In this document: one piece after another, positions 10,685-64,000 of the stretch
How positions within the stretch are numbered: position 1 is the stretch's first letter
How the letters are laid out: every line of letters starts with the position of its first letter
Virus record (IMG/VR): IMGVR_UViG_3300016471_001002
Coordinates: 147,098-211,097 of that record
Source: a virus
Lineage: Duplodnaviria; Caudoviricetes
Strand: one strand, 5' to 3'
DNA: 64,000 nucleotides
Notes under the pieces: generated by a model
Database searches by the model: none
Told to the model about the DNA's origin: nothing
What the model saw: the letters and a program-made list of their open reading frames with translations, nothing else
Made by a program: the position numbers and the translations under genes

Positions 10685-10759
10685 CCGCCTGTAGGGCCGG
10701 TTGCCCTAGGAGTTCTTATAAAGCTCCGTTGCCTGGTTCAACTCCAGGCAGGCGGACCA
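10685..10759 (+). tRNA. trnI: tRNA-Ile (anticodon UAU)
   Basis: Acceptor CCGCCTG/CAGGCGG-A-CCA; anticodon arm GAGTT-CTTATAA-AGCTC; T-arm CCTGG-TTCAACT-CCAGG; short D-loop. Confidence 0.8.
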
Positions 10760-14616: not shown

Positions 14617-14647
14617 GATCTATATGTATTCTTTCTTTTTCTTGAAG

Positions 14648-20692: not shown

Positions 20693-22309
20693 ATGTCATC
20701 TGAACAAGAGCAAAGTAATGTTGGGATTGTCTTTTCAAAAGACGCAAGAAAGAAGCTTTACAACGGTCTAAGATTAGCTGCTGAAGCCGTAAGCTGCACT
20801 TTAGGCCCGAATGGAAAAACAGTTTTAATTCAAAACGGTAATAATTCTCCAATCATAACCAAAGACGGAGTAACTGTAAGCAAATCAATCAAGCTTCCAG
20901 ATCCTTTGGAAATGATGGGAGCCCAGCTGCTAAGAGAAGCTGCTTCTCAAACCAACGATGTCGCTGGAGATGGAACGACAACATCGACTGTTTTAACTCA
21001 TGCTTTGGTAAAAGAAGGCGTCAAATTACTTGATGCTGGATACAATTCAAAAAAGCTTTGTGAAGGATTTGATCTAGCTTCCAAGACTATTACGAGCTTT
21101 CTGTCGATGATGTCTACTCCGGTTGAATCATCAGAAAAAATAAAACAAATCGGAACGATTAGCGCAAACGGTGATGAAAAAATTGGTGAAATCATTGCTG
21201 CAGCGATGGATAAGGTTGGAAAAGATGGAATCATAACAGTTGAAGACGCAAAAGGAACTGCAACTAGCTTTGATGTTGTCGACGGCATGCAATTTGACAG
21301 AGGATATCTTTCTCCTTACTTCGTTACAAATAACGAAAAAATGCATTCAATGTATAATGATGCATACGTTTTAGTTACAGACAAGAAGATTTCTACGATA
21401 AAGGAAATTCTTCAAATTCTTGAAAGAATTGTTGAAGTAAGAAAACCTCTGTTGATCGTCGCAGATGATGTTGAAGGAGAAGCTTTACAGGGGTTGGTTT
21501 TAAATAGAGTTAAAACTCAATTACAGGTTGTTGCAATCAAAGCACCTGGATTTGGCCCATCAAGAACCGACTATTTGAATGATATTTGCGTTCTAACCGG
21601 TGCTACATTAATTTCAAGCATTAATGGAATCACTTTAGACAAAGCTACGTTGAATGAGCTTGGTAAAACAAAGAAGATTGTAGTAGATGCAAAATCTACG
21701 ACCATTGTTGGAACAGAATCTTCTCAAGAAAAAGTAAGTTCACATGTAGAAGATTTGAGAACACGAGCTACTGACATTACGTTGGGTCATGAAGAATTGT
21801 CTGCATTAAAAATGAGAATTGCAAGATTATCTTCGGGTGTTGCAATCATTAAGGTTGGAGGTGCAACTGAAATTGAAATGATCGAACGAAAGTACAGAAT
21901 AGAAGATGCCCTTCATGCAACTCGAGCTGCAGCAGAAGATGGAATCGTTCCCGGAGGAGGTTCAGCATTGTTCTATGCTGCAGAAGAATCAAAAGCTGTT
22001 CTTCTTAGTGCAGATCATGATAGAGATGTCCTTGCAGGAATTGAGGTCGTTCTAAAAGCTTGCAAGGCTCCGTTGAGAAGAATCGTAGAAAATTCAGATA
22101 AATCATCTGACGTTGTTGAAGATGAAATGCTAAGAAATAAGGGTCAAAAATTAGGATATGATGCATCAACTGGAAGGTTTATCGATTTAATTGCAGCAGG
22201 TATAATTGATCCAGCCAAAGTGACAAAAACGGCCCTAAAAAATTCAACTTCTGTAGCAAAGTTGTTTATGACTTTGGACGCCGTCGTTTTAAATGACTCC
22301 AAGGTATAA
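20693..22309 (+). CDS. groEL: chaperonin GroEL (Cpn60)
   Basis: TLGPNGK, ITKDGVTV, AGDGTTTSTVL, GMQFDRGYLSPYF, KAPGFG, VGGATEIE, GIVPGGG, GIIDPAKV. Confidence 0.96.
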   Translation: MSSEQEQSNVGIVFSKDARKKLYNGLRLAAEAVSCTLGPNGKTVLIQNGNNSPIITKDGVTVSKSIKLPDPLEMMGAQLLREAASQTNDVAGDGTTTSTVLTHALVKEGVKLLDAGYNSKKLCEGFDLASKTITSFLSMMSTPVESSEKIKQIGTISANGDEKIGEIIAAAMDKVGKDGIITVEDAKGTATSFDVVDGMQFDRGYLSPYFVTNNEKMHSMYNDAYVLVTDKKISTIKEILQILERIVEVRKPLLIVADDVEGEALQGLVLNRVKTQLQVVAIKAPGFGPSRTDYLNDICVLTGATLISSINGITLDKATLNELGKTKKIVVDAKSTTIVGTESSQEKVSSHVEDLRTRATDITLGHEELSALKMRIARLSSGVAIIKVGGATEIEMIERKYRIEDALHATRAAAEDGIVPGGGSALFYAAEESKAVLLSADHDRDVLAGIEVVLKACKAPLRRIVENSDKSSDVVEDEMLRNKGQKLGYDASTGRFIDLIAAGIIDPAKVTKTALKNSTSVAKLFMTLDAVVLNDSKV

Positions 22310-39806: not shown

Positions 39807-39881
39807 TGGTGGGTCGCCTGTGAGTCGAACACAGTTCAGAAGGTTAAAAGCCTACTGCATCACCACTAATGCTTGCAACCC
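39807..39881 (-). tRNA. trnK: tRNA-Lys (UUU)
   Basis: GGGTTGC/GCGACCC-A-CCA; anticodon loop CTTTTAA; T-loop TTCGACT. Confidence 0.85.
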
Positions 39882-39926
39882 ATTGATATTGTTAATATAT
39901 CATACTAAGTTAAGACTTTACACGCT

Positions 39927-40598
39927 CTAGAGCTTTTTTATTTCATCCAAACACTTTCTATAGAACTTGCGTCCGATATCCTTTTCGGTAATCCAGAGAT
40001 GTTCATGTTTGGATAAAAGTTTCTTTTTTGCTTCTTGCGTAGAAATATAAGTTTTCCATTTATCAGAAAGCTTATCACCAACGTAAGGAGAAGTGTATTT
40101 TACTTCAACGATAATCTTCCCGTCAATAATGAAATCAGGTTGGTACTTAATACCTTCCCCCTCAAGATAACCCTTGAATCTTTCAATTTTTGAATTTGGA
40201 TGTTGTTCGAGGTACCATTTCAAAAAGGCATACTCTAAAGCAGAGTCGCATCGAATTCCTTCATACGACGTTTTTATGCCGTATCCGATGTTTCCCTTTT
40301 CGATTTCTTTTAATCTAGAAACTCTCCATTTTTCTAGAACAGTTGGATCGGAATGCTGATGATTGATAGCACATTGACAGGAGCAAAACTTTTTATGCTT
40401 CTTTTTTGTAGAAAATTTCTTTTCACATTGTTTACAGGTTTTTTCGTATGGGTCAAGTGTTAACGTCTTACTAACTTTTTCGTTAATCTCTTTTCTTTTA
40501 GACTTTGTAGAAAAACCTCTCGAACATCCCTTAGAACAAAATCTTCCAGAACCATAAGAGCCATCATTGTCAGAACCGCAGTATTCGCATTGTTTCAT
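39927..40598 (-). CDS. putative homing endonuclease (Zn-binding repeats + PD-(D/E)xK domain)
   Basis: CEYC...FCSKGCS, CKQC...FCSCQC; YQPDFIIDGKIIVEVK; start MKQCEY preceded by ATAGTTA-N5. Confidence 0.75.
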   Translation of the reverse strand: MKQCEYCGSDNDGSYGSGRFCSKGCSRGFSTKSKRKEINEKVSKTLTLDPYEKTCKQCEKKFSTKKKHKKFCSCQCAINHQHSDPTVLEKWRVSRLKEIEKGNIGYGIKTSYEGIRCDSALEYAFLKWYLEQHPNSKIERFKGYLEGEGIKYQPDFIIDGKIIVEVKYTSPYVGDKLSDKWKTYISTQEAKKKLLSKHEHLWITEKDIGRKFYRKCLDEIKKL

Positions 40599-40610
40599 GT
40601 AAATAACTAT

Positions 40611-40647
40611 TGGGCTCCAACAAATCGAACCTACAAACAATCGGTTA
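40611..40647 (-). pseudogene. degenerate tRNA 3'-half remnant
   Basis: Minus strand AACCGATTGTTTGTAGGTTCGATTTGTTGGAGCCCA: anticodon-stem 3' side and T-loop GGTTCGA retained, T-stem broken. Confidence 0.45.
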
Positions 40648-40687
40648 TTTTCTAAAACTTTTTTTCATCGTGCGATATATTGATATC

Positions 40688-40852
40688 ATGCCGAGAAACA
40701 AAAAGACAGCATCGTTAAAAGCCGGGATAACCTTTCTTAGTTTCTTATCCCAACTTGCTTCAATTCAAGAAGATAAAGGGAAAAAGAAAGAAATCGATAA
40801 CACAAACAGGTTATTAAAAGCCCTAAGATATCTTCTAGGAATTGAAAGATAA
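40688..40852 (+). CDS. small basic hypothetical protein
   Basis: MPRNKK start, 54 aa. Confidence 0.4.
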   Translation: MPRNKKTASLKAGITFLSFLSQLASIQEDKGKKKEIDNTNRLLKALRYLLGIER

Positions 40853-40856
40853 ACTG

Positions 40857-41093
40857 TCAATCCTCTGATGCTCGTCTTGATGCATGGATAAAAGAAATTA
40901 CCATTGCGCAGATGATATGCCATCCTAAAGAGGATCGACTAAAACTAGCCCATGGCCAATTAAAAGCCGCACCCAAAATCCAAAAACCTATTCCAAAAAA
41001 TAATCCTGCAAGAGGTGCAGTGCATCCATAAACTAATACCTTAGGATAAAACACTATCATGCAGACAACAAAAATAATCCACAAAATAGGCAT
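40857..41093 (-). CDS. small membrane protein
   Basis: Hydrophobic segments; AGGA upstream. Confidence 0.55.
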   Translation of the reverse strand: MPILWIIFVVCMIVFYPKVLVYGCTAPLAGLFFGIGFWILGAAFNWPWASFSRSSLGWHIICAMVISFIHASRRASED

Positions 41094-41113
41094 ATTGTTT
41101 TCCTAACAATATT

Positions 41114-41311
41114 TCAAAACTTTTTTTCAATTACCGTAAGAGTGTCTGGATCAACAAAATCGAAGACTTTAGGATCACCCACCTTACAAATACGAGCCTG
41201 AATGACGTCGAGCTCATAGTTCTTGGCAATCTTTGTGATCATCCACGATCCTTCAAATCCATCGCGGGTGACAAAATCTCCTGTGATTACTCGCTTCTTC
41301 TTCTTTTCCAT
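41114..41311 (-). CDS. small SH3-like hypothetical protein
   Basis: VITGDFV motif; start moved to MEKKK. Confidence 0.5.
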   Translation of the reverse strand: MEKKKKRVITGDFVTRDGFEGSWMITKIAKNYELDVIQARICKVGDPKVFDFVDPDTLTVIEKKF

Positions 41312-41449
41312 GTTCCCCAACATACCACCTTGTCTATCTACTTTACACAACTTTGTGGGCCATCCCCGTCCTGCCCGGGGGACCTCCACTTTATCAGAGT
41401 GGCTATCTAACTAACTGATATAATGGCCCTTGTATTCTTACGTTTTATC

Positions 41450-41526
41450 TGGCGGGATAGATGGGGTTCGAACCCACGACCTTCGCAGTGACAGTGCGAT
41501 ATTCTAACCAACTGAACTACTATCCC
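41450..41526 (-). tRNA. trnD: tRNA-Asp (GUC)
   Basis: GGGATAG/CTATCCC-G-CCA; anticodon arm TCGCA-CTGTCAC-TGCGA; T-loop TTCGAAC. Confidence 0.92.
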
Positions 41527-42332
41527 AGTCTTGATATATATTTCTCATTCCACCATTTAATCTTTTCTTGTAACTGTTCAAGCGTCATTCCACATTTTTT
41601 GCCTTTGGACACATTTAAGTTGTGAACCATTAATCTACAATTTGCTGGATGAGAAATTATGCTTGGGTCTATGTTGTTTTCAAATCCATATTTTACGGAT
41701 ATGATGTGATCTCTTGAAACACCGTCGAGATTATTTCCGCGATTTTTTGCAGAATACCAACCATACTTTTCTATCAAAGTAAAGTCGAATTCTTCGGGAT
41801 AATCGGCTAAATTAAACTTAAAACAACAAAGAGTTCTATAATATTTTAGTCCTGCTTTGTCAAGAAGCGGGTATCGAATCTTCGTGCTGCATTCAACTGA
41901 ACAACATTTTTGATGAGGATGCTTTGAACTAACAACAAATCCGTTATTACATCCTTGACAAATTTTCGTGATTCTTTCAGAGATTATTCTTCCAGAAAGT
42001 TTCTTTCTTACTTTTTCTTTAAAGACTTCTGATCTAGGTCCTCTACTGTTTGCACAAGACCTTGAGCAGAAATAAATGTCTCTTTCTGGATGTCTCTTTT
42101 CTCTTTCTTTAACAAAGAAGTGAACATAACAACGTTCACATGTCACATCATATTCTCTTACTTCTCCAAATTCATTTTTATAACGTTCAATGGTTTTTTG
42201 AGAACACTTTGATGCGCCCTTGTCACCGTTTGTAAGGTTTTTATCACACCATCTTACATGATTTGCAAACACTTTTCCTTCCTCGTTTGGAAAAAAAGTG
42301 TTGCAGTACTTACACGTTCTATCTTGTCTCAT
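41520..42332 (-). CDS. putative HNH homing endonuclease with Zn-binding repeats
   Basis: CKYC..NHVRWC, CERC..FCSRSC, CQGC..CCSVEC; GVSRDHIISV...HPANC...HNLN; stop codon lies inside the tRNA-Asp acceptor stem. Confidence 0.8.
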   Translation of the reverse strand: MRQDRTCKYCNTFFPNEEGKVFANHVRWCDKNLTNGDKGASKCSQKTIERYKNEFGEVREYDVTCERCYVHFFVKEREKRHPERDIYFCSRSCANSRGPRSEVFKEKVRKKLSGRIISERITKICQGCNNGFVVSSKHPHQKCCSVECSTKIRYPLLDKAGLKYYRTLCCFKFNLADYPEEFDFTLIEKYGWYSAKNRGNNLDGVSRDHIISVKYGFENNIDPSIISHPANCRLMVHNLNVSKGKKCGMTLEQLQEKIKWWNEKYISRLG

Positions 42333-42376
42333 ACTAATAAGTATGGACCTGCTTTTAATCGAACCTGTTTTATTTG

Positions 42377-42448
42377 TGGAGAATCCCGGCTACGCTCCGG
42401 GCACTGCTGCGTGCAAGGCAACTGTTTTCCTGAATAAACTAATTCCCC
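42377..42448 (-). tRNA. trnA: tRNA-Ala (UGC), non-canonical T-loop
   Basis: GGGGAAT/ATTCTCC-A; loop CTTGCAC; T-arm CCCGG-AGCGTAG-CCGGG. Confidence 0.8.
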
Positions 42449-42498
42449 GATGAACTACCGGCCCTAACTCTAATAAGTATTAGTCACTTTGCGTTTTG

Positions 42499-42581
42499 TG
42501 GAACGGGACAGATTCGAACTGCCGTAGACATACGCCAACGCGTTTACAGCGCGTCCCCTTTAGCCACTCGGGCACCGTTCC
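42499..42581 (-). tRNA. trnY: tRNA-Tyr (GUA)
   Basis: GGAACGG/CCGTTCC-A; loop CTGTAAA; long variable arm; TTCGAAT. Confidence 0.92.
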
Positions 42582-42582
42582 G

Positions 42583-42658
42583 TGGAGCCACCTGCCGGAA
42601 TTGCACCAGCGACCGGGACTTTACAAGGGTCCTGCTCTGCTAACTGAGCTAAGGTGGC
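42583..42658 (-). tRNA. trnT: tRNA-Thr (UGU)
   Basis: GCCACCT/AGGTGGC-T-CCA; loop CTTGTAA; T-loop TGCAATT. Confidence 0.88.
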
Positions 42659-42671
42659 GTAATCTATGTTG

Positions 42672-42866
42672 TCAAGGTGGTAAAATTGTTTGTCCGTCAG
42701 AGGGAGGAATTTGTTTCCATTCCTCACAATTTTCAATGTAAAGATATCTTTCTTGAACTTTTTGTATACATTGCGCAGAAGGATGTTTGATTTTTTTTTG
42801 CTTTTTAGTTGGAAAGCAAGCGCACGTTAGAGCGAGTGCATATAATAATAAAGCTTTTTTTAACAT
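42672..42866 (-). CDS. small putative lipoprotein
   Basis: LALTCAC lipobox-like. Confidence 0.45.
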   Translation of the reverse strand: MLKKALLLYALALTCACFPTKKQKKIKHPSAQCIQKVQERYLYIENCEEWKQIPPSDGQTILPP

Positions 42867-43078
42867 TGCTCTCCAAATAGCACGTTAAACTCATCCTCGT
42901 ACATTTTAGAGACTCTGCCCATAAAATCTACTGATTCGATCGTGTCCATTACAATTGATTCATCTCCAATGAACATCTTGATTCGACCGCGGCTGGATAC
43001 ATACACACGCAAATTATCCTTGGAGTATGAAAACTTCCAAGTCTCGGCACGATCAAGAAGAGATACGACGTTATTCAT
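42860..43078 (-). CDS. hypothetical protein
   Basis: 72-aa ORF inside the tRNA cluster. Confidence 0.55.
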   Translation of the reverse strand: MNNVVSLLDRAETWKFSYSKDNLRVYVSSRGRIKMFIGDESIVMDTIESVDFMGRVSKMYEDEFNVLFGEQC

Positions 43079-43116
43079 GGTTCTTAATATAAAACAATCA
43101 AGTTAAAGTTTACACT

Positions 43117-43193
43117 TGGTGACCCTACTGGGTGCTGCCCCCAGTTTTTCGCCTTGAAAGGGCGACGACTTAGCTGACGTGGTCGATAGGGCC
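43117..43193 (-). tRNA. trnE: tRNA-Glu (UUC), non-canonical T-loop
   Basis: GGCCCTA/TAGGGTC-A-CCA; TCGCC-CTTTCAA-GGCGA; T-arm CTGGG-GGCAGCA-CCCAG. Confidence 0.82.
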
Positions 43194-43194
43194 A

Positions 43195-43268
43195 TGGTTG
43201 GGGAACTAGGATTCGAACCTAGATAAAGAGATTCAAAGTCTCTTGTCCTGCCTTTGAACGATTCCCCA
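43195..43268 (-). tRNA. trnQ: tRNA-Gln (UUG)
   Basis: TGGGGAA/TTCCCCA-A-CCA; AGAGA-CTTTGAA-TCTCT; TTCGAAT. Confidence 0.92.
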
Positions 43269-43269
43269 G

Positions 43270-43356
43270 CGGAGAGACAGGGATTCGAACCCTGGGTACC
43301 CGTTAAGATACACAGCATTTCCAATGCTGCTCCATCGGCCTCTCGGACATCTCTCC
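43270..43356 (-). tRNA. trnS: tRNA-Ser (GGA)
   Basis: GGAGAGA/TCTCTCC-G; CAGCA-TTGGAAA-TGCTG; long variable arm. Confidence 0.92.
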
Positions 43357-43363
43357 AATTTTG

Positions 43364-43442
43364 AGCGGGTGGACGGACTCGAACCGACGATGCTTTCGCG
43401 GGAGGTTGGAAACCTCCTGCCATACCACTAGGCGACACCCGC
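43364..43442 (-). tRNA. trnG: tRNA-Gly (UCC) with enlarged variable region
   Basis: GCGGGTG/CACCCGC-T; GGAGG-TTTCCAA-CCTCC; 12-nt variable region CGCGAAAGCATC. Confidence 0.85.
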
Positions 43443-56097: not shown

Positions 56098-56179
56098 GCC
56101 CCGATGGCGAAATCGGTATCCGCAGAAAATTTAAAATTTTCCGTCGAAAGACATGCCAGTTCGAGTCTGGCTCGGGGCA
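56098..56179 (+). tRNA. trnL: tRNA-Leu (UAA)
   Basis: GCCCCGA/TCGGGGC-A; GAAAA-TTTAAAA-TTTTC; long variable arm; TTCGAGT. Confidence 0.9.
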
Positions 56180-56215
56180 CAAAGTTCTCTGTCTTTGACA
56201 ATTTAAGATTACTGA

Positions 56216-56297
56216 GCCGCTCTGGCGGAACTGGCATACGCATCGGTTTCAAACTCCGACGTCCTCGGACTTGTGGGTTCGACTCCCACGGGCGGCA
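56216..56297 (+). tRNA. trnL: tRNA-Leu (CAA)
   Basis: GCCGCTC/GGGCGGC-A; loop TTCAAAC; long variable arm; TTCGACT. Confidence 0.88.
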
Positions 56298-56301
56298 CAA
56301 T

Positions 56302-56334
56302 GCACCAATAGCTCAGCCGGATAGAGCAGCGCAG
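56302..56334 (+). pseudogene. tRNA 5'-half (Arg-type D-arm), truncated before the anticodon
   Basis: GCACCAA-TA-GCTC-AGCCGGATA-GAGC-AGCGCA, then TATATATATG start of the endonuclease; no matching 3' half found. Confidence 0.7.
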
Positions 56335-56341
56335 TATATAT

Positions 56342-57136
56342 ATGAGTATGACATTACTCAAATGTAGATATTGCTCGGTTGAATTTGAAAACAAAGCTAA
56401 ATTATCTGGACATGTTACTTGGTGTATTCTTAATCCAAAAAGAAAAAAGAACTTAGAAACGTTAAGTAATTCTAGATCAAAGATCAAAAATAATCTCTTT
56501 GACGAGATTACAAAATCGTGCAAGTGGTGCGGAAAAGAATTGACCTTAGTAAGATCTGCTTTTATTAATCATGTTCGTTGGTGTGATTTAAATCCAAATC
56601 TTGAAAAGTACAAAGAGACTCTTAAGCAAAGTTCCTCTTTAAACAAAGAATCAATTGAAAAAATGCGTTCTTCTTTAAAAGAAGCGCATAAACGAGGAGC
56701 ATATAAAGATGCTCATGAAAAGTTGAGAGGAAAGCCCGGGCGTAAACATTCGGAAGAAGAAAAAGAGAATCTTTCGAAAAAAAGAAAAGAATGGCTTACG
56801 AAGAATCCTGATAGGCATCCTTGGAAAAGAAATGAAAAGTTCGTTAGCATTCCTTGCGAAAAGCTAAAGAATGATTTGAAAAATGAAGGGGTTCTCTTTG
56901 AGGAAGAATTTACACCGCTACCAGATCGCTACTTTTCACTAGACATAGCTTTTCCAGAAAAAAAGTTAGGAATTGAAGTTAACGGAGAACAGCACTACAA
57001 TCGCGATGGAACATTACGAAAGTACTATCAAGAACGTCATGACTTAATCGAATCCGCAGGATGGAAATTGCTTGAACTTCATTATAAAGATTGTTATAAT
57101 GAAGATGTAGTCGATAAAATAAAGAAACTTTTATAA
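56342..57136 (+). CDS. putative homing endonuclease (Zn-finger repeats, NUMOD3-like, DUF559/Vsr-like PD-(D/E)xK domain)
   Basis: CRYC..GHVTWC, CKWC..NHVRWC; GKPGRKHSEEEKENLS; LDIAFPEKKLGIEVNGEQHY. Confidence 0.8.
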   Translation: MSMTLLKCRYCSVEFENKAKLSGHVTWCILNPKRKKNLETLSNSRSKIKNNLFDEITKSCKWCGKELTLVRSAFINHVRWCDLNPNLEKYKETLKQSSSLNKESIEKMRSSLKEAHKRGAYKDAHEKLRGKPGRKHSEEEKENLSKKRKEWLTKNPDRHPWKRNEKFVSIPCEKLKNDLKNEGVLFEEEFTPLPDRYFSLDIAFPEKKLGIEVNGEQHYNRDGTLRKYYQERHDLIESAGWKLLELHYKDCYNEDVVDKIKKLL

Positions 57137-57141
57137 GTTTT

Positions 57142-57211
57142 GCCTCGAGGGCCGGATGCCCAGCAGAGTCTTCTAAATTCAGCGTGCTATGTTCAACTCA
57201 TAGTCGAGGCG
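57142..57211 (+). tRNA. trnR: tRNA-Arg (UCU), divergent
   Basis: GCCTCGA/TCGAGGC-G; loop CTTCTAA; T-arm CTATG-TTCAACT-CATAG; weak D-arm. Confidence 0.7.
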
Positions 57212-57253
57212 CAAAGCAAATAATTCGAATAGTTCTTTGAAGGAGAATACGAA

Positions 57254-57556
57254 ATGGGAAAGGTAAAGGGAGCACAACACATGACGTGGGGTCATCATGA
57301 CACGATGATCGTTAACCTGCGAGATTGGGTTCGTCGTGAGATCAATGTGCTACGCTCAGATCTTACGAAAGAGGTGCCGTCATTGTCCGACAATCCTGAC
57401 GTCATGAAAACCCTCCAGTCAGCAGAGGATCTGAATGTTCAAGTGTTCGATTTGATTCGTAGTGTTGTCGATCTCGCAGAGAAGTCTTCAAAGGCAAAGC
57501 CTCAAAAGGCAATTGCCGATGAACCTGATTACCCTGCGCACGATGACATGGATTGA
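57254..57556 (+). CDS. hypothetical protein
   Basis: AGGAG RBS; 100 aa. Confidence 0.65.
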   Translation: MGKVKGAQHMTWGHHDTMIVNLRDWVRREINVLRSDLTKEVPSLSDNPDVMKTLQSAEDLNVQVFDLIRSVVDLAEKSSKAKPQKAIADEPDYPAHDDMD

Positions 57557-57831
57557 TGCATTCTTTGAATGCTAAAAACAATAGAAGGTTGAACAAGGGA
57601 GAAATGCAAATGATTATTAAACGAATTAAGCAAGTTATTAGTGATAATGTTGAGAACTTTAAGAGTTACTGGTACGTGCTTCTATCATTCGTAGCCTTGG
57701 GGTCTATGTCTCGTAATTCAGATATGCTTCATGTCATCCTCGTTGCAATTCCAGCGTGGATGGCTGTTGCTGCAACGCTACGTTTGAATCATGATGTCTC
57801 GCTTCGAGCGGCACGAAAGTCAAGTCAATGA
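57553..57831 (+). CDS. small membrane protein
   Basis: Two hydrophobic segments; start may be at a later ATG after GGAG. Confidence 0.55.
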   Translation: MMHSLNAKNNRRLNKGEMQMIIKRIKQVISDNVENFKSYWYVLLSFVALGSMSRNSDMLHVILVAIPAWMAVAATLRLNHDVSLRAARKSSQ

Positions 57832-57871
57832 TGTACAACGGGGTCTTCATGGTATATGATTGACCCCACAT

Positions 57872-57947
57872 TGATGGGTAGCCAAACGGTAAGGCTTCGC
57901 ACTGTTAATGCGACGATGTGTAGGTTCGAATCCTACCCCATCAGCCA
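57872..57947 (+). tRNA. trnN: tRNA-Asn (GUU)
   Basis: TGATGGG/CCCATCA-G-CCA; TCGCA-CTGTTAA-TGCGA; TTCGAAT. Confidence 0.9.
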
Positions 57948-57965
57948 AATTATTAATGCAACGAG

Positions 57966-58220
57966 TTGCAATTTGTGCGTGCACGGGAAGGTAAGCATTC
58001 ATTAGATCTTCATGGTGTTTCTCATGAAGAAGCCGGTGACATCGTGCATCAGTTTGTCAATGCCCATTGGCACGCGAATGTAGAACTACACATCATCACC
58101 GGCCATTCTGCACGCATGAAGTCGATCGTCCGATCCGTGTTGAAGTGCTATGATCTCGAGGTGTTTGAAGGCGATCCTCGGAATTCAGGTTACATCAGGG
58201 TCCAGACATGGCAGGAATGA
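57966..58220 (+). CDS. Smr (small MutS-related) domain protein
   Basis: LDLHG...IITGH...N.G motif order; start codon uncertain. Confidence 0.75.
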   Translation: MQFVRAREGKHSLDLHGVSHEEAGDIVHQFVNAHWHANVELHIITGHSARMKSIVRSVLKCYDLEVFEGDPRNSGYIRVQTWQE

Positions 58221-58358
58221 CCCAGGAGAGGCTTTCAAGAATGGGATAAGGTTACCATGGGGTTGGTTTTAAAAGCCTCTCCAAGGGCATCCTCGAGTGA
58301 ATGAACTTTTTTACGGTGATGAGTGCAAACTTCCTTTTTGAAGTGATAGGATTGGATC

Positions 58359-58742
58359 ATGGCAACGAGATCATTCATCGGTAAGCTCAATCATGACGGG
58401 ACTGTCGCTGGGGTCTACTGTCACTATGACGGGTATCCTGAGGGCGTTGGTCGGATCCTCAAGAACCATTACACTGATCTTGAGAAGATCGATGAACTTC
58501 TTGCCTTGGGGTCCATCTCAAACCTTGGACCTGAGATTGGCGAGGCACATGACTTTGACTCTGCTCCGGAGACGGCCGTGGCCTGGACGACAGCATATCA
58601 TCGAGATCGTGGAGAAGAGTTGGAACCGGCCGACGTCTATCCGGACGTTGTGGAACTCGTGAAGAACGCCCGAGAAGACTTCGGGGCAGAGTGGGTCTAC
58701 GTCTTCCAGTACGACGGATGGCGAACTTACGAAGTTCCGTGA
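58359..58742 (+). CDS. conserved phage hypothetical protein (cassette)
   Basis: MATRSFIG...VYCHYDGYPEGVG..LKNHY. Confidence 0.8.
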   Translation: MATRSFIGKLNHDGTVAGVYCHYDGYPEGVGRILKNHYTDLEKIDELLALGSISNLGPEIGEAHDFDSAPETAVAWTTAYHRDRGEELEPADVYPDVVELVKNAREDFGAEWVYVFQYDGWRTYEVP

Positions 58743-58782
58743 CGTGGTGCAAAGTTCCTCCAAGAAGTGATAGGGTAGAACC

Positions 58783-59103
58783 ATGAACATCGTCGAGTAC
58801 ATCTCTGGTCCCCGCAAGTACCGCGTCACCCTCGTCCCCGGTGCCCACGTGATCGTGGAACACTTCCGTGACGACCAGTTCATCTCCATGCGGAGGTTCG
58901 AGGTGGGTGACGAGGTGGAGTACGACTCTTTCAACCTGAGCTACACCGGGCCCATCCTCTCCATCGGCAAGAAGACCGTCACGGTGGAGTCCTCCTTCAA
59001 GGGGAAGAGGCGCCTCAAGGCCGAGGAGTTCGGCTGGCGGAACTGGGACTTCAACGCGGGCGAGGTGGCCCGCCGGAACGCGGAGACGTCGCAATCGATC
59101 TGA
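58783..59103 (+). CDS. hypothetical protein, SH3-like (cassette)
   Basis: FEVGDEVEYDSFNLSYTGPI..IGKKTV. Confidence 0.75.
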   Translation: MNIVEYISGPRKYRVTLVPGAHVIVEHFRDDQFISMRRFEVGDEVEYDSFNLSYTGPILSIGKKTVTVESSFKGKRRLKAEEFGWRNWDFNAGEVARRNAETSQSI

Positions 59104-59144
59104 ACCCGGTGCAAAGTTCACCAACGATTTGATAGGATAGGACC

Positions 59145-59324
59145 ATGGACAACATCAACGAACCGCAGTTTGACGAAGTCGACCTCAACCGGTTGTACGA
59201 GGCATTGATGTACCGTATCACCGCCCATCGCTCTGCCGTCGAACGGGTAGCTCCCGAGGAGCTTGACGCGCTCCGCGAGCTGAAGGACCGGATTGGCCAG
59301 ATGTTGAACGCCCAGCTGGTGTGA
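59145..59324 (+). CDS. 59-aa hypothetical protein (cassette; absent from the track)
   Basis: MDNINEPQFDEVDL...NAQLV*; start fixed by the repeat. Confidence 0.7.
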   Translation: MDNINEPQFDEVDLNRLYEALMYRITAHRSAVERVAPEELDALRELKDRIGQMLNAQLV

Positions 59325-59376
59325 AAAGTTACCCGATTCAGTGCAAAGTTCAACCACGAAGTGATAGGATAGAACC

Positions 59377-59577
59377 ATGAGCAACGACAAGTTCCAACTC
59401 AACCCCGACCTCCACGATGCCTCCCTCGAGAAGGCCTGCGAGATGGCCAACGATCTCATCGAAGAGATCGAAGACGCATACAACGATGGACCCTCTCATC
59501 CTGGTGTTACAGCTTTCAATTTGAGCTACATGCTCGAGTACCTCCGGCTCAACTTCGACCTGGTGCCGAAGAAGTGA
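59377..59577 (+). CDS. hypothetical protein (cassette)
   Basis: Start fixed by the repeat. Confidence 0.72.
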   Translation: MSNDKFQLNPDLHDASLEKACEMANDLIEEIEDAYNDGPSHPGVTAFNLSYMLEYLRLNFDLVPKK

Positions 59578-59613
59578 GTGCAAAGTTCGACCAAGAAAGG
59601 GTATACTAGGACC

Positions 59614-59808
59614 ATGAAGAACAACGCTGCATCGTACAAGTACTTCGTCGGCTTCAAGTTCACGGCCCTCGAGGTCGAGGAGCAGGCGGCGGTCCGCCGT
59701 GAGGTGCGTGAAGGGTACCTCCGGATCGAACCTGGCACCCGGATCGTCCGAGCCATTCCTCAACCTGACCCGGCTCTGCCGGTCCACAACGGTCGCTTTT
59801 GGGCCTGA
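59614..59808 (+). CDS. hypothetical protein (cassette)
   Basis: MKNNAAS...; the track's GTG start is the promoter -35 box. Confidence 0.7.
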   Translation: MKNNAASYKYFVGFKFTALEVEEQAAVRREVREGYLRIEPGTRIVRAIPQPDPALPVHNGRFWA

Positions 59809-59849
59809 TCGCGGTGCAAAGTTCAACCAAGAAGTGATAGGATCTATCT

Positions 59850-60221
59850 ATGCCGATCAAGTACAGTTTCACCCCTCGTGAGCTCATCAACGCCTACAAC
59901 CGGAAGGTCATGACCAAGGTGGCCGAGATCTTCGAGTCGAGCCCGTGTCGTGACGGTGTCATCCTCGAGGATTGTGGTTCCTGGTTGGTCCAGGAGGCCT
60001 GGCAGGACCGGACGGGGTTCTACATGACCATCCGGTTGGCACCCCTGGACAAGCACCGTGAGGCCGTCCAGGAGGAGGGTCGGGTCATCACCCGGAAGTT
60101 CCTGGACATGTTCCCGGACCGCACGGCGTCGGGGACCTTCTACGAGGGTCAGGACGGGTACCTGGAGGGTGAGAAGGTGACGGTCTTCGTCCAGACGTCC
60201 TCCTACTCCATCGCGGACTGA
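59850..60221 (+). CDS. hypothetical protein (cassette)
   Basis: 123 aa; start fixed by the repeat. Confidence 0.72.
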   Translation: MPIKYSFTPRELINAYNRKVMTKVAEIFESSPCRDGVILEDCGSWLVQEAWQDRTGFYMTIRLAPLDKHREAVQEEGRVITRKFLDMFPDRTASGTFYEGQDGYLEGEKVTVFVQTSSYSIAD

Positions 60222-60223
60222 AT

Positions 60224-60307
60224 ATGCGCCTAGACGATCCGGCTTTCCAGCACGTTCTTGTTGCAGTTTCATTGGTGTTCTGCACTTTTGTGCTCATCTT
60301 CTGTTGA
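60224..60307 (+). CDS. 27-aa hydrophobic peptide
   Basis: MRLDDPAFQHVLVAVSLVFCTFVLIFC* fills the gap before the next repeat. Confidence 0.4.
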   Translation: MRLDDPAFQHVLVAVSLVFCTFVLIFC

Positions 60308-60347
60308 AGCAGTGCAAAGTCACCGACGAGTTTGATAGATTAAGACC

Positions 60348-60449
60348 ATGGACATCATCATTGAAGCCATCTCCACCGCGGCTTTCATCATCGGCGTCTT
60401 CTTTGGTCCGGCCCTCGCTGTAGAGGCTTACAAGGCAGTTCGTTCCTGA
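60348..60449 (+). CDS. 33-aa single-TM peptide (cassette)
   Basis: MDIIIEAISTAAFIIGVFFGPALAVEAYKAVRS*. Confidence 0.65.
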   Translation: MDIIIEAISTAAFIIGVFFGPALAVEAYKAVRS

Positions 60450-60490
60450 ATTCAGTGCAAAGTCAACCCTGAACAAGATAGGATAAGACC

Positions 60491-60667
60491 ATGAAGAACG
60501 ACATCAAGCCTGGCGACATCGTCACCCTCGGCCCGGAGAACGGACTCGGCACCGGACGTTTCCTCGTCCTCAAGATGTATCCAAACGATCCCATCCACAA
60601 GCTCCTCGTCTCCGGCTTGAACGGCATCTGGCCGGCTCGGATCGAGGGTGCTCGGGTCGTCGGCTGA
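60491..60667 (+). CDS. 58-aa SH3/KOW-like protein (cassette)
   Basis: MKNDIKPGDIVTL... Confidence 0.7.
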   Translation: MKNDIKPGDIVTLGPENGLGTGRFLVLKMYPNDPIHKLLVSGLNGIWPARIEGARVVG

Positions 60668-60720
60668 AAAAGTTTCTGAGCTCGGTGCAAAGTCAACCCT
60701 GAACAAGATAGGATAAGACC

Positions 60721-60909
60721 ATGAACGAGATCAAGACCTGCAAGTGCGACTCCTGCGGTGCCACCCTCCCGGGAGTCGAGTTCCACCACAACGGTGCCCC
60801 GGTTCTCCAGCTCTGCAAGAACTGTTCCCCCAGCAACTTTGAGGCTCAGGCCCGTGATGACATCGACGCCTGGTTGAATGGTGGCGATCCTTCGGCTTTC
60901 GGGCGCTGA
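60721..60909 (+). CDS. zinc-ribbon protein (cassette)
   Basis: CDSCG...CKNC. Confidence 0.72.
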   Translation: MNEIKTCKCDSCGATLPGVEFHHNGAPVLQLCKNCSPSNFEAQARDDIDAWLNGGDPSAFGR

Positions 60910-60962
60910 AAAAGTTCGTTGCCTCGGTGCAAAGTCGCTGACGAATAAGATATACTAAGATG

Positions 60963-61154
60963 ATGGACAAACGTTGCATCATCCAACCGTCTCTTGGTCC
61001 GGTGGCTGCAGCTACTAAGCTCAAGGCCATTGTCAAGGAACTCGACGTTCTTTTCAACCTTCCAGGTCTTCCAGAATCTTATTACGATGACCTGTTTCAT
61101 GCCATGGCCAATACTGCGTCTGCAATTAATTCGGTCCAAAAAGTAACACGTTGA
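60963..61154 (+). CDS. hypothetical protein (cassette)
   Basis: MDKRC; start fixed by the repeat. Confidence 0.65.
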   Translation: MDKRCIIQPSLGPVAAATKLKAIVKELDVLFNLPGLPESYYDDLFHAMANTASAINSVQKVTR

Positions 61155-61190
61155 GTGCAAAGTCGCTGACGAACGAGGTATATTAAGACC

Positions 61191-61919
61191 ATGGCAATCA
61201 CCAAGACCAGCTGCGACGCCAACGGCCTCTACACCATCACCGAGACCCTCTACCACGGGCGAGTCATCCGGCTTGAGACGACCACGGAGACCCGCAACTG
61301 GTCGGACACGCTGGACTACACGGATATGCGGTCCACCACTTGCACCTACGCCCTGGTCTACCTCGGCCACGAGGGCAAGAAGCCCCGTCACCACCACGTC
61401 GGCAGCCGTGCCTACGTCACCGACGCGCCCTGGGTTGAGGTCGAGGCCCTGGACATCGGCGACCGGTTCGCCTGGGTCGACTGCACCAACCTCTTCGTGC
61501 ACCGCAACGGTTTCAGCCTCGCTCCGGTGGTCGACACCTTTGGCGACATCATCCTCCACTGCGGCACCGAGGTCTACGACGAGCTGGCAGCCTGGGAGGC
61601 TCATCACAAGGCCGTCCTCGAGGCGAAGGTCGCCGAGGACAAGCGACAAGCTGCGATTCGCCAGGCCGCGCTCGAGGCCGAGAATGCCAAGCGCGCCGAA
61701 CGGAATGCCAAGAAGCAGGCCAAGGAGGATGCCCTCAAGTCCGAGGCGGAGAAGCTCCTGGCCCGAATCCCGGCCAAGGGCACCGAGGTCACTGTCGACG
61801 GGTTCACCGGTAAGGTCTTCTGGGTCGGCGTCTCCAAGTATTACGGCAAGTTCAACGCCCGAGCGGGGGTCAAGGACACGAAGGGTAACGTCCAGTGGAT
61901 CGACGCCGCCCGGTTCTGA
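61191..61919 (+). CDS. hypothetical protein with central coiled coil (cassette)
   Basis: 242 aa; C-term KGTEVTV...GKVFWVG SH3-like. Confidence 0.78.
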   Translation: MAITKTSCDANGLYTITETLYHGRVIRLETTTETRNWSDTLDYTDMRSTTCTYALVYLGHEGKKPRHHHVGSRAYVTDAPWVEVEALDIGDRFAWVDCTNLFVHRNGFSLAPVVDTFGDIILHCGTEVYDELAAWEAHHKAVLEAKVAEDKRQAAIRQAALEAENAKRAERNAKKQAKEDALKSEAEKLLARIPAKGTEVTVDGFTGKVFWVGVSKYYGKFNARAGVKDTKGNVQWIDAARF

Positions 61920-61925
61920 GGCTCA

Positions 61926-61993
61926 GGTTGGCCCAGGAAGGGTTCTTGGATATTCGGTAGGGGTAACCAAGGCCGGCCTTTCCTGGGCCAACC
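61926..61993 (+). other. long intergenic hairpin
   Basis: GGTTGGCCCAGGAA pairs with TTCCTGGGCCAACC; inner CTTGG/CCAAG stem. Confidence 0.65.
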
Positions 61994-62068
61994 CGGGGGC
62001 TTCCTGGGTGCTGAAAAAAGTTTCTCGATTCGGTGCAAAGTCAACCCTGAACGAGGTATACTAGAACC

Positions 62069-62230
62069 ATGGAAACGAAGCTCTCCTTCGACGAAGTCGA
62101 ACTGAACTACATCCTCGAGGCCGTGCAGCACTTCCGTGAGCATGGTTCGATCGCCGGCACCGACATGGCCGTGTACTCTGCCGAGCTGGAGAACATTGAG
62201 GATCGGATCCTAGAGTTTCTCGGTGAGTGA
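62069..62230 (+). CDS. 53-aa acidic protein (cassette)
   Basis: METKLSFDEVELNYILE... Confidence 0.68.
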   Translation: METKLSFDEVELNYILEAVQHFREHGSIAGTDMAVYSAELENIEDRILEFLGE

Positions 62231-62283
62231 ACTTTTTTTAGCTCGTGGTGCAAAGTCGCTGACGAACCGAATATATTAGAATC

Positions 62284-62463
62284 ATGGAAACAATGTACAT
62301 CATCAACCCGGACACGAACGAAAAGGTTCTCGTCACCGTCGGCGAAGGCCCTCTCCCCTACACGGTCGAGCTCACCTTCGGCTCCAGCTACTCGATCGTC
62401 ATGAGCACTGAAGATGCTTCGAAGCTCGGGGTCGCACTGGCCCAAACCGGCGTCCAACCCTGA
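62284..62463 (+). CDS. 59-aa hypothetical protein (cassette)
   Basis: METMYIINPDTNEKV... Confidence 0.68.
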   Translation: METMYIINPDTNEKVLVTVGEGPLPYTVELTFGSSYSIVMSTEDASKLGVALAQTGVQP

Positions 62464-62516
62464 AGAAACCGCACCACACGGTGCAAAGTCGCTGAAGAAC
62501 AAGGTATACTAGAACC

Positions 62517-62696
62517 ATGGCAAACACTCGTAAGGTTCAGGTCGGAGACAACGTCACCCTCAACGGTCGCTCTTGGGCGGTCACAGCCATCAGCCGCGGC
62601 GTCGAAAAGATCGCTCGTCTCTGCGTCCCCGGAGACCCCAACAACGTCATCTTCGCCTACGTCCACGAGCTCTCGAACCCCGGTCCCTGGCGCTGA
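62517..62696 (+). CDS. 59-aa SH3/KOW-like protein (cassette)
   Basis: MANTRKVQVGDNVTLNG... Confidence 0.68.
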   Translation: MANTRKVQVGDNVTLNGRSWAVTAISRGVEKIARLCVPGDPNNVIFAYVHELSNPGPWR

Positions 62697-62748
62697 AAAG
62701 TTACCCGATTCAGTGCAAAGTCACAGACGAATAAGATATACTAGAACC

Positions 62749-62961
62749 ATGGACAACATCTACACCTGGAACTGGAAGACTGGCGGTTACAACTCCTGCA
62801 CGGCTCGGAACCTTTCCGACGCCAAGCGCAAGGCCGACACAATGGGCACCCCCCGCGGCGGCATGAAGGTCCGCCTCGTGCCTGACCCGACGTCCTTCCG
62901 CAAGATCACGACGGCCGAGATGGCCGCCCTCGACCGAGCCTGGGCCGCGGCCTTCGACTGA
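62749..62961 (+). CDS. 70-aa hypothetical protein (cassette)
   Basis: MDNIYTWNWKTGGYNSC... Confidence 0.72.
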   Translation: MDNIYTWNWKTGGYNSCTARNLSDAKRKADTMGTPRGGMKVRLVPDPTSFRKITTAEMAALDRAWAAAFD

Positions 62962-63006
62962 GCGCGGTCTGTGCAAAGTCAACCCTCAACAGGATAGGAT
63001 AAGACC

Positions 63007-63177
63007 ATGAGCCGAACCCGCAAGGTAACCAACCAGCTCCTCGATATGATCGAAGACGGAATCCTCGACCCAGAGGCCGTCCTCATGGCATGCCTCCAGT
63101 ACATGAGCGAGGCAGACGTGGCAGACATGGCCCACAGCAACGAGTTCATTGTCGAAGAAGACGAAGAAGACGAGTGA
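63007..63177 (+). CDS. 56-aa acidic protein (cassette)
   Basis: MSRTRKVTNQLLDMIEDGILDPEAVLMACLQYMSEADV... Confidence 0.72.
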   Translation: MSRTRKVTNQLLDMIEDGILDPEAVLMACLQYMSEADVADMAHSNEFIVEEDEEDE

Positions 63178-63231
63178 CAAAAACTTCCTGGCCCGGTGCA
63201 AAGTCGCTGACGAACAAGGTATATTAAGACC

Positions 63232-63375
63232 ATGGACAACGAAAACGAGATGGAGTACGACGACGATCCCCCATACCTCTCACCCGGTGAGATCCGCGTC
63301 ATGCGTGAACACGAGTACCGGTACGACATCGACGTCTGGCTCCTCTCAGGCCGGACCGACCACTTCCAGCTCTGA
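63232..63375 (+). CDS. 47-aa acidic protein (cassette)
   Basis: MDNENEMEYDDDPPYLSPGE... Confidence 0.62.
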   Translation: MDNENEMEYDDDPPYLSPGEIRVMREHEYRYDIDVWLLSGRTDHFQL

Positions 63376-63428
63376 AAAAGTTTCCCAACTCAGTGCAAAG
63401 TTCGACCAGGAAAGGGTATATTAAGACC

Positions 63429-63788
63429 ATGAACAAGGTTCGAAGCCACGCCGGCAAGTACGAGACCGCCCTTCAGAAGTACATCCCGCAGGAGGTGAAG
63501 ACCTGGACTCCCCTCCACGTCGAGCTCCTGACAGCGGCGAGCACCATCGACCGGCTCACGGCGGACATCATCCGCGACTCCAAGAGCCTGAGTGAGAAGT
63601 TCGCCCGGTACGCAGAGGAGGTCGAGCACCGCGGTGAAGGTTGGTCTCCCCTCGGCTACTCCTCCCTCCGGGACCTGGACCTCAACATCGCACAGCTCGC
63701 GGTCCACAAGGAGTACTTCCGTAACCTGCTCCGGACCCTCGACCCCGAGGCACCCAAGGCTTACCTCAAGGACCTCACCACGGGCTGA
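63429..63788 (+). CDS. hypothetical helical protein (cassette)
   Basis: MNKVRSHAGK; start fixed by the repeat. Confidence 0.72.
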   Translation: MNKVRSHAGKYETALQKYIPQEVKTWTPLHVELLTAASTIDRLTADIIRDSKSLSEKFARYAEEVEHRGEGWSPLGYSSLRDLDLNIAQLAVHKEYFRNLLRTLDPEAPKAYLKDLTTG

Positions 63789-63878
63789 AAAGTTTCCCCT
63801 CCCGGTGCAAAGTCAGCGGCGATCCTGGTAGATTAAGATAGTCAACACACGGCAACCTCAACACGCGGAGCACACATC

Positions 63879-64000
63879 ATGGCAAACATGAACCTCAACG
63901 TTTCGATGAAGTCTTGGAAGCGCGGCACCAACATCCTCGACCTCGAGGTCCCGGCCCAACTGGAACGCACGGTGAAGACCGGTCTCAAGTGGTTCGACGA
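63879..64000 (+). CDS. partial ORF, possibly the N-terminus of a RecA/RadA-family ATPase
   Basis: GGAG RBS; MANMNL...ERTVKTGLKWFD resembles the (I/V)xTG..xxD segment preceding the Walker A of RadA/KaiC-like proteins; truncated by the window. Confidence 0.4.
   Translation, partial: MANMNLNVSMKSWKRGTNILDLEVPAQLERTVKTGLKWFD

Follow-up and report, generated by a model that had tools for sequence, protein, structure and literature searches.

In T4-type phages, ORFan genes are flanked by promoter-early stem-loop (PeSL) elements, which combine a repeated early promoter, an AT-rich tract upstream of it, a stem-loop terminator, and a Shine-Dalgarno (SD) sequence (Arbiol et al. 2010, PMC2839356; Comeau et al. 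2014, PMC4122927). These elements mediate modular shuffling without a dedicated recombinase, in phages whose homologous recombination is very active (PMC2839356). Here, we analyzed a 64-kb stretch of viral DNA (the window), the final part of a 211,097-bp IMG/VR contig with a CheckV completeness of ~65%. Toward its right end, the window carries an array in which copies of one repeat, GTGCAAAGT-N15-TANNNT, alternate with small open reading frames (ORFs). On sequence grounds, the array is a putative leaderless variant of the T4 PeSL cassettes, and we put the probability at roughly 0.7 that it is an early-gene region of at least 19 promoter-ORF cassettes yielding leaderless, nested early mRNAs that are transcribed by the host enzyme. 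The contig carrying the window is labeled G000, related phage records G001 and G005, and related loci or pieces L followed by a number.

The initial annotation had likened the array to PeSL elements, and the comparison is apt, since whole cassettes have been exchanged at the promoter repeats relative to a near-identical locus, L123. The phage is of the T4 type (large terminase, portal, and sheath), its ORFan genes lie in a variable region, and each small ORFan follows a copy of the repeated sigma-70-type promoter, which has an A/T-rich tract upstream in 12 of 19 units. As with PeSL elements, whole ORFans have been inserted, deleted, or replaced at the repeats between close relatives, and no dedicated recombinase was seen. 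In contrast with a PeSL, which ends in an SD and a start codon, the promoter here is fused to the ATG and predicts a leaderless mRNA. The stem-loop terminator present in each PeSL unit is absent from 17 of 19 units, and a separate hairpin of ~85 nt is found at block boundaries only. Two further differences are that the -35 element is a private, invariant 9-mer and not the host consensus and that the array forms an island of high GC content, with a strong codon split, within an AT-rich genome.

Leaderless genes driven by a TANNNT adjoining the ORF occur in Deinococcus-Thermus and have been demonstrated experimentally for Deinococcus (PMC12340547). Like the array, the leaderless genes of Deinococcus-Thermus and Actinobacteria have TANNNT at -12 to -7 from an AUG start codon and no SD, but the array adds the invariant upstream 9-mer and the dense tandem one-gene cassettes in a T4-type phage. 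Among phages, phiKZ has no leaderless transcripts, and the leaders of AR9 measure 26 to 491 nt. Sevostyanova and colleagues are said to have reported in 2007 that the Thermus phage phiYS40 has leaderless middle and late transcripts; the leaderless class there would be middle/late, not early. Halovirus HF2 also has repeated intergenic promoter elements that punctuate its early gene region, but its host and promoter type are archaeal, its repeat sequence is unrelated, and the part of the source available describes no fixed fusion to a start codon (PMC8707807). Full-text literature searches turned up no account of arrays of leaderless promoters in either T4-type or jumbo phages.

The repeat and its geometry

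With at most one mismatch allowed, GTGCAAAGT-N15-TANNNT matched 28 times in the window, compared with 0.30 matches expected from shuffled sequence (largest shuffle, 2). Nineteen of these matches lie head to tail on the + strand at 58323 to 63834, in agreement with the earlier count of about 19 cassettes headed by the motif; the first copy is GTGCAAACT. A recount reproduced the reported spacing: the ATG begins exactly 6 nt past the -10 hexamer in 18 of 19 copies. The exception, at 63805, has a leader of ~38 nt with GGAG 8 nt upstream of the ATG at 63879. The -10 variants were also as listed before, namely TAGGAT (seven copies), TATACT (five), TATATT (four), TAGATT (two), and TAGGGT (one). Distances from a stop codon to the next 9-mer were 0 to 18 nt at 16 junctions, with two longer gaps of 90 and 113 nt. 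An A/T tract (mostly A3-6GT) begins many units at a fixed offset of 17 to 19 nt before the 9-mer, corresponding to about -55 to -47, and in this position it resembles an UP element. The statement that cassettes open with such a tract held for 12 of 19 units; only in six of these does it directly follow the preceding TGA. The six additional sites named in the initial annotation, 49583(-), 50603(-), 50624, 51822, 52580, and 55750, all show the same geometry with 0 to 2 mismatches in the 9-mer.

The two halves of the repeat predict each other. When sites were anchored on the 9-mer alone, TANNNT followed at N15 in 22 of 22 cases in this genome and an ATG at +6 in 21 of 22; the corresponding numbers in related loci were 161 and 142 of 169. 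The reverse anchoring, on the downstream half (TANNNT, ARRACC, and ATG), covered this genome and 20-kb pieces, taken without selection, of two relatives; the 9-mer was present in exact register at 57 of 58 sites. The weight-matrix scan that had been proposed, with a matrix built from 261 copies taken only from relatives, found 26 sites in this genome, 25 of them abutting an ATG, and no site in any of five shuffles. Five whole related phage records contained 106 copies of the motif, 96 of them with an ATG at +6 (reversed-pattern control, 0). A pattern scan of IMG/VR yielded at least 118 stretches, with multicopy arrays on about a dozen contigs among the matches listed. Over the whole contig, TANNNT stands exactly 6 nt before the ATG of 35 genes (background, ~8 to 10), and the peaks counted ahead of ATG codons were TANNNT at 6 nt and ATA.TTA at 5 to 6 nt.

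Conservation over 191 copies was 92% for G-14, 98% for T-12, 98% for A-11, 97% for T-7, 83% for C-1, and 91% for A+1, while positions -10 to -8 varied freely (TAC, TAT, GAT, GGA, and AGG). Judged by its letters, this is the pattern of a -10 element of the sigma-70 family, complete with the G of an extended -10 and a start site of the pyrimidine/purine kind, and not that of an SD. Six nucleotides from the -10 hexamer to +1 is the standard promoter distance. The position-specific conservation thus supports the earlier proposal of a promoter adjoining the start codon in the geometry of leaderless genes, and the repeat behaves as a promoter of the sigma-70 type.

The same letters could be read differently, as ordinary SD-led translation from long polycistronic RNAs, with the purine part of the repeat (AGGA in TAGGAT; AGG or GGG upstream of TATAYT) serving as the ribosome binding site and the fixed distance to the ATG being SD spacing. 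The seven TAGGAT copies do have AGGA 7 nt upstream of the ATG, G-14 is well conserved, terminators are lacking between cassettes, and SDs are used elsewhere in the genome, an SD-like tetramer being present at 122 of 300 crude gene calls genome-wide compared with 26 in a shifted control. However, conservation of T-12, A-11, and T-7 with free variation at -10 to -8 is the opposite of what an SD needs. In the TATAYT copies, the nearest purine run ends ~12 nt from the ATG, which is too far, and the 9-mer at its fixed 15-nt spacing would have no role. We therefore regard SD-led translation of this kind as improbable. The claim that the cassettes have no SD stands insofar as the upstream letters are promoter positions, although the AGGA within the seven TAGGAT boxes may allow a weak SD-like reading there.

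The 9-mer spans -36 to -28; with TGCAAA as the -35 hexamer, the spacer would measure 17 bp. No match to Sigma70_r2 or to a multisubunit RNA polymerase was found in the 211 kb. A search of the same 211 kb for a T7-type RNA polymerase was also negative, although it was silent in every control genome as well and so shows little. Because no phage RNA polymerase or sigma factor was found, the host holoenzyme is the most economical and most likely reader of the promoter.

Transcripts and codon usage

The initial annotation described each cassette as an independent transcription unit, which the predicted transcript boundaries do not support. No terminator-like site was found on the + strand within the array, and two long hairpins were located:

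58205 to 58290 (+): degenerate long hairpin just upstream of cassette 1; inner stem GGAGAGGC.../...GCCTCTCC; core holds GGTTACC in flipped orientation.
61918 to 62003 (+): long RNA hairpin with a stem of ~30 bp and apical GGGGTAACC; free energy, -63.3 kcal/mol; z, -4.9.

Folding of 58225 to 58325 gave an 11-bp inner stem whose letters agree with the consensus hairpin of the relatives. The stop codon of a small Smr-domain ORF (57966 to 58220) sits within the 5' arm of this degenerate hairpin; just upstream of the array, this ORF and a RAP/DUF559-type endonuclease-like ORF (56342 to 57136) lie among tRNA genes. Related arrays contain about 12 hairpin copies, each with the core GGGGTAACC followed by an A-tract and with a promoter ~73 to 76 nt past the core. 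In an alignment of 11 copies, five of 22 pairs show compensatory changes. The sense strand also accommodates G-U pairs, and this tolerance suggests that the putative hairpin acts at the RNA level. The long hairpins have no U-tail. Possible functions are those of a factor-assisted or tail-less terminator, a 3'-end stabilizer, or an RNase III-type processing site, and the hairpin at 61918 to 62003 is probably a transcript 3' end, an insulator, or an RNase III-type processing site. Only 2 of the 19 array boundaries have a long hairpin, and these bound blocks of cassettes. Since there are no terminators between cassettes and only the long hairpins bound the blocks, nested 3'-coterminal read-through transcripts are likely.

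The array also differs from the rest of the genome in composition. Its GC content is 54 to 58%, compared with ~40% for the genome, and GC content at third codon positions (GC3) is 0.43 to 0.92 in array genes, mostly above 0.75, compared with 0.24 to 0.36 in most 10-kb genome bins. The codons ATA, AAA, TTA, and AGA make up 0.00 to 0.03 of their synonymous sets in the array and 0.23 to 0.59 elsewhere; CAA, GGA, ACA, and GCA are likewise avoided. These are the codons of the phage tRNAs Ile-UAU, Lys-UUU, Leu-UAA, Arg-UCU, Gln-UUG, Gly-UCC, Thr-UGU, and Ala-UGC. The window holds thirteen phage tRNA genes (10685 to 10759, 39807 to 43442, and 56098 to 57947), most of which read A/U-ending codons, including one with an Ile anticodon UAU. 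A GC-rich, promoter-dense island beside tRNA genes is also found in the relatives G005 and G001, and a promoter belonging to this family stands upstream of a cluster of 12 tRNA genes in G005. The simplest reading would be that translation of the array draws on the tRNAs of a GC-rich host at a time when the phage tRNAs are not yet available and that later genes need the phage tRNAs. T4 shows a mild form of such a codon pattern. Host-type usage, in which the codons matched by phage tRNAs are avoided, gives indirect support to the label "early," which the array had been given at the outset.

These features suggest the following model. In a hyperplastic early region, each cassette would open with a rigid composite promoter of ~45 nt, made up of GTGCAAAGT at the -35 position, G-14, TANNNT at -12 to -7, a 6-nt discriminator (ARRACC), and often the A-tract at about -55 to -47. 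The discriminator would run into the ATG, so that a sigma-70-type holoenzyme, most likely that of the host, would start on the A of the ATG (C-1/A+1) and leave no leader. Ribosomes would bind the 5'-terminal AUG directly, without an SD. RNA from each promoter would continue to the next long hairpin and give nested 3'-coterminal RNAs, of which chiefly the first ORF would be translated because internal ORFs are preceded by promoter letters without a good SD; every ORF would therefore carry its own promoter. GC-rich, host-type codons that avoid the phage-tRNA codons would allow translation immediately upon infection. Finally, the repeated promoters may double as recombination homology, through which cassettes would be gained, lost, and reshuffled between related phages.

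Several points weigh against this model. The ability of the host to translate leaderless mRNA is assumed. AGGA at SD-like spacing in the seven TAGGAT boxes, in a genome that uses SDs elsewhere, means that some internal initiation on read-through RNA may occur. Matches to lake metatranscriptomes are few Logan contigs of 170 to 460 nt at a depth of ~3, unable to show 5' ends; they match the window at 99% or more at 61827 to 62011 and 63858 to 64000, and DNA carry-over is possible. One of them ends at 62011, 8 nt past the long hairpin, which is a weak hint at best. The 9-mer agrees with TTGACA at only 3 of 6 positions and is nonetheless nearly invariant; a host -35 box would not usually look like this, and an extra factor may be involved. 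With the contig ~65% complete, a phage sigma factor or activator could also sit in the missing part.

The last two points lead to the strongest alternative, in which the leaderless geometry holds but the promoters are private to the phage and of a middle type: a phage factor, possibly delivered with the virion, would read the 9-mer in place of sigma region 4, and the host sigma factor would read the -10 element only. T4 middle promoters, which pair a MotA box with a sigma-70 -10 element and depend on sigma appropriation by MotA and AsiA, provide the precedent. The 9-mer occupies the position of the MotA box and, like it, is a conserved non-consensus element in the -35 region paired with a TANNNT -10. 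The box sequence and spacing differ, however, and T4 middle mRNAs have leaders. No match to MotA or AsiA (PF09114 and PF09010) at an E of ≤1 was found in the 211 kb of this ~65% complete contig. A single consensus scan of 57500 to 64000 revealed no other abundant sigma-70-type promoter class from which such a factor could be expressed first, and the whole-contig scan for TANNNT 6 nt before ATG does not separate promoter classes. Host-type codon usage, in addition, argues for expression at the earliest stage. We consider phage-private promoters of this type unlikely, if less so than the SD-based explanation.

One protein that would fit this alternative deserves mention as a possible phage DNA-binding or transcription factor. 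This 284-aa candidate (G000:C1:93481-94335; L127:1009-1863) has a weak sigma-70 region-4-like helix-turn-helix (E, 0.02 to 0.06), which is below any threshold, and an N-terminal tag of the MRQVLITESSLRELLKE type. It is kept in three related records and ~270 metagenomic proteins, none of which has a Pfam domain. Its AlphaFold model is poor (predicted local distance difference test [pLDDT], 67; predicted template modeling score [pTM], 0.30), and Foldseek returned no match in the PDB at an E of ≤0.001.

A broader proposal, which we offer tentatively and think doubtful, treats the array as a dedicated platform for SD-independent expression. Its 9-mer would be read by a phage-supplied factor, it would serve as a plug-in site, and the genome would be split into two translation regimes. 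The first would comprise the GC-rich, host-tRNA-dependent leaderless genes with one promoter per ORF and nested RNAs ending at long hairpins; the second would be the AT-rich remainder, dependent on the phage's own tRNAs. If this were true, the promoter would be private to the phage clade, and any captured ORF would be expressed at once.

Cassettes and their exchange

The cassettes of the array are as follows:

58323 to 58742 (+): cassette 1; promoter 58323 to 58352 (GTGCAAACT variant, TAGGAT), ATG 58359, 127 aa, TGA; protein in phrog_1987 (E, 7e-29) and atlas cluster "T4-like GC 66" (a T4-like cyanophage gene cluster name), with homologues in 8 related loci.
58747 to 59103 (+): cassette 2; promoter 58747 to 58776 (TAGGGT), ATG 58783, 106 aa; 83% homologues in L036 and L092; absent from L123.
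59109 to 59324 (+): cassette 3; promoter 59109 to 59138, ATG 59145, 59 aa.
59341 to 59577 (+): cassette 4; promoter 59341 to 59370, ATG 59377, 66 aa; no homologue among the related loci compared.
59578 to 59808 (+): cassette 5; promoter 59578 to 59607, directly after the preceding TGA, ATG 59614, 64 aa; 3' end ..HNGRFWA.
59814 to 60221 (+): cassette 6; promoter 59814 to 59843, spacer CTATCT, ATG 59850, 123 aa; 89% homologues in L128 and L123.
60312 to 60449 (+): cassette 7; promoter 60312 to 60341 (TAGATT), ATG 60348, 33-aa hydrophobic peptide.
60455 to 60667 (+): cassette 8; promoter 60455 to 60484, ATG 60491, 58 aa; absent from L123.
60685 to 60909 (+): cassette 9; promoter 60685 to 60714 (identical to that at 60455), ATG 60721, 62 aa, Cys-rich; 12 homologous hits.
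60927 to 61154 (+): cassette 10; promoter 60927 to 60956, ATG 60963 (second ATG at 60960), 63 aa; lowest GC3 of the array, 0.43.
61155 to 61919 (+): cassette 11; promoter 61155 to 61184, directly after the preceding TGA, ATG 61191, 242 aa; the most widely conserved protein of the array, with 13 hits at 52 to 98% identity.
62033 to 62230 (+): cassette 12; promoter 62033 to 62062, ATG 62069, 53 aa.
62248 to 62463 (+): cassette 13; promoter 62248 to 62277, ATG 62284, 59 aa.
62481 to 62696 (+): cassette 14; promoter 62481 to 62510, ATG 62517, 59 aa.
62713 to 62961 (+): cassette 15; promoter 62713 to 62742, ATG 62749, 70 aa.
62971 to 63177 (+): cassette 16; promoter 62971 to 63000, ATG 63007, 56 aa, acidic tail.
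63196 to 63375 (+): cassette 17; promoter 63196 to 63225, ATG 63232, 47 aa.
63393 to 63788 (+): cassette 18; promoter 63393 to 63422, ATG 63429, 119 aa; family last or next to last in six compared arrays.
63805 to 63834 (+): nineteenth promoter; TAGATT, GGAG at 63867 to 63870, ATG 63879; the gene runs off the contig end at 64000.

The 18 complete ORFs encode 33 to 242 aa, the range given in the initial annotation, and all start with ATG and stop with TGA. Protein homologues in related arrays were found for 15 of the 18, at 30 to 98% identity and usually aligned from residue 1, and we take these ORFs, by their sequence conservation, to be real genes. No Pfam domain was detected in any of the 18 proteins, and PHROGs and a protein atlas gave essentially no functions; the one protein assigned to a PHROG family belongs to a family that is itself of unknown function. 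The host-takeover role proposed at the outset is therefore a guess, drawn from where the genes lie and how small they are. The genes had been described as unrelated to their neighbors, but at least two small proteins and the C terminus of the 242-aa protein look SH3/KOW-like by eye. The gene starting at 63879 encodes a KaiC/RadA-like ATPase; the homologous protein of L019 matches the KaiC ATPase domain of Pfam (E, 9e-11). At 60225 to 60308, beside cassette 7, lies a 27-codon hydrophobic ORF (MRLDDPAFQH...) that starts 3 nt past the TGA of cassette 6 and lacks its own promoter; it may encode a coupled micropeptide or be a mere spacer.

The comparison with L123, another lake phage contig, showed where cassettes have moved. 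L123 is 98% identical to the window over 57000 to 58787 and 91 to 94% identical over 59781 to 61633. In place of four cassettes of the window (58783 to 59808), it has one unrelated 78-aa cassette. The 58-aa cassette at 60491 to 60667 is missing from L123 through a 230-bp indel bounded by the identical promoters at 60455 and 60685. One breakpoint lies inside the 3' end of an ORF: the cassette 5 protein and the 78-aa protein of L123, otherwise unrelated, share HNGRFWA. Twenty arrays together contain 179 cassettes (median, 73 aa; 158 with TGA stops) that form 94 protein families and differ in order. From these alignments, the promoter repeats appear to be sites of cassette exchange.

Exchange of this kind raises the question of whether the repeats are primarily recombination sites of an integron- or transposon-like gene capture system, their likeness to promoters being secondary. 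Stop codon, repeat, and start codon do make a portable junction, and cassette indels and reshuffling fall exactly at the repeats. Yet a scan restricted to neighboring ORFs found no recombinase. Folding of the 19 promoter units was no more stable than that of shuffled sequence (mean z, +0.47), and no attC-like folded site was found among them. At least one breakpoint, that at HNGRFWA, lies within an ORF instead of at a fixed site, and the active homologous recombination of T4-type phages suffices to explain the exchanges (PMC2839356). A capture system is the least probable of the explanations considered, and by a wide measure an improbable one; promoters that also provide homology for recombination remain our preferred interpretation.

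The phage and its host

PHROG matches in the contig include a large terminase, a portal, a major head protein, three sheath paralogues, SbcCD, DnaB, and ribonucleotide reductase. By these matches, the packaging and head module is of the T4 type, and the source is a putative far-T4-like jumbo myophage, uncultured and from fresh water. The large terminase shares 41% identity with its counterparts in Flavobacterium phage "immuto" and Microcystis phage Mel-JY01 and ~30% with those of T4-like coliphages. Near-identical DNA is present in freshwater and lake metagenomes of 11 studies, while a megablast comparison of the array with 50,697 phage records gave zero matches, so that no cultured phage there is alike at the DNA level.

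The location of the array at the contig end, both here and in G001, prompted the idea of a genome terminus like the first-step-transfer region of phage T5. This was ruled out by the T4-type terminase, which implies headful packaging, and by G005, a 278-kb relative in which the array is internal (59 to 76 kb). At the contig ends, the assembly probably broke on repeats.

The closest large terminases come from phages of three host groups (Flavobacterium, Microcystis, and Rhodothermus), and neither WhiB nor psbA, sought as host clues, was found in the genome. In genome collections, the extended motif occurs only on short contigs binned into unrelated lake metagenome-assembled genomes (MAGs) of Proteobacteria, Chloroflexota ("Aquidulcis"), and Bdellovibrionota. 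The MAG contigs with these arrays are as follows:

L128 to L133: RFPR01000166, RGVZ01000341, RGWK01000283, RGCW01000031, and JBBAUR010000072.

We rejected the bins as a host clue; the contigs are most likely misbinned phage fragments that contaminate lake MAGs.

Other parts of the contig have features of their own. Genes for PrkA (E, 1e-138) and SpoVR (E, 1e-115) lie side by side at 12682 to 15955 of the window. The best match of PrkA in a cultured phage is to the Thermus phages phiYS40 and TMA (34%), a similarity that says nothing on the host, and PrkA is also present in huge uncultured phages of ~600 kb. A GroEL-type chaperonin gene lies at 20693 to 22309. A 20-kb block that ends ~2 kb before the window (G000:C1:125001-145000) is nearly without GAC/GTC: the observed/expected ratio is 0.07, 0.07, 0.00, and 0.14 in four successive 5-kb bins, compared with 0.7 to 1.2 elsewhere and 1.2 to 1.4 in the array. 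This depletion suggests avoidance of a GWC-containing restriction/modification site in one genome block only.

Host-type codons in the array, together with phage tRNAs for AT-rich codons, predict a GC-rich host capable of translating leaderless mRNA, and this narrows the host search. The clade is common in lakes, with dozens of contigs and hundreds of copies of one 45-nt element, and the motif is a ready marker for early and probable anti-host genes in uncultured jumbo phages. The array joins three topics usually studied apart, namely, promoter cassettes that shuffle ORFans, leaderless translation, and a codon and tRNA split between early and later genes, and it is a natural test bed for leaderless initiation serving a virus. 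If the start sites were confirmed, this would be a T4-type phage with its whole early program on leaderless mRNAs, in which one promoter per gene would be a structural consequence.

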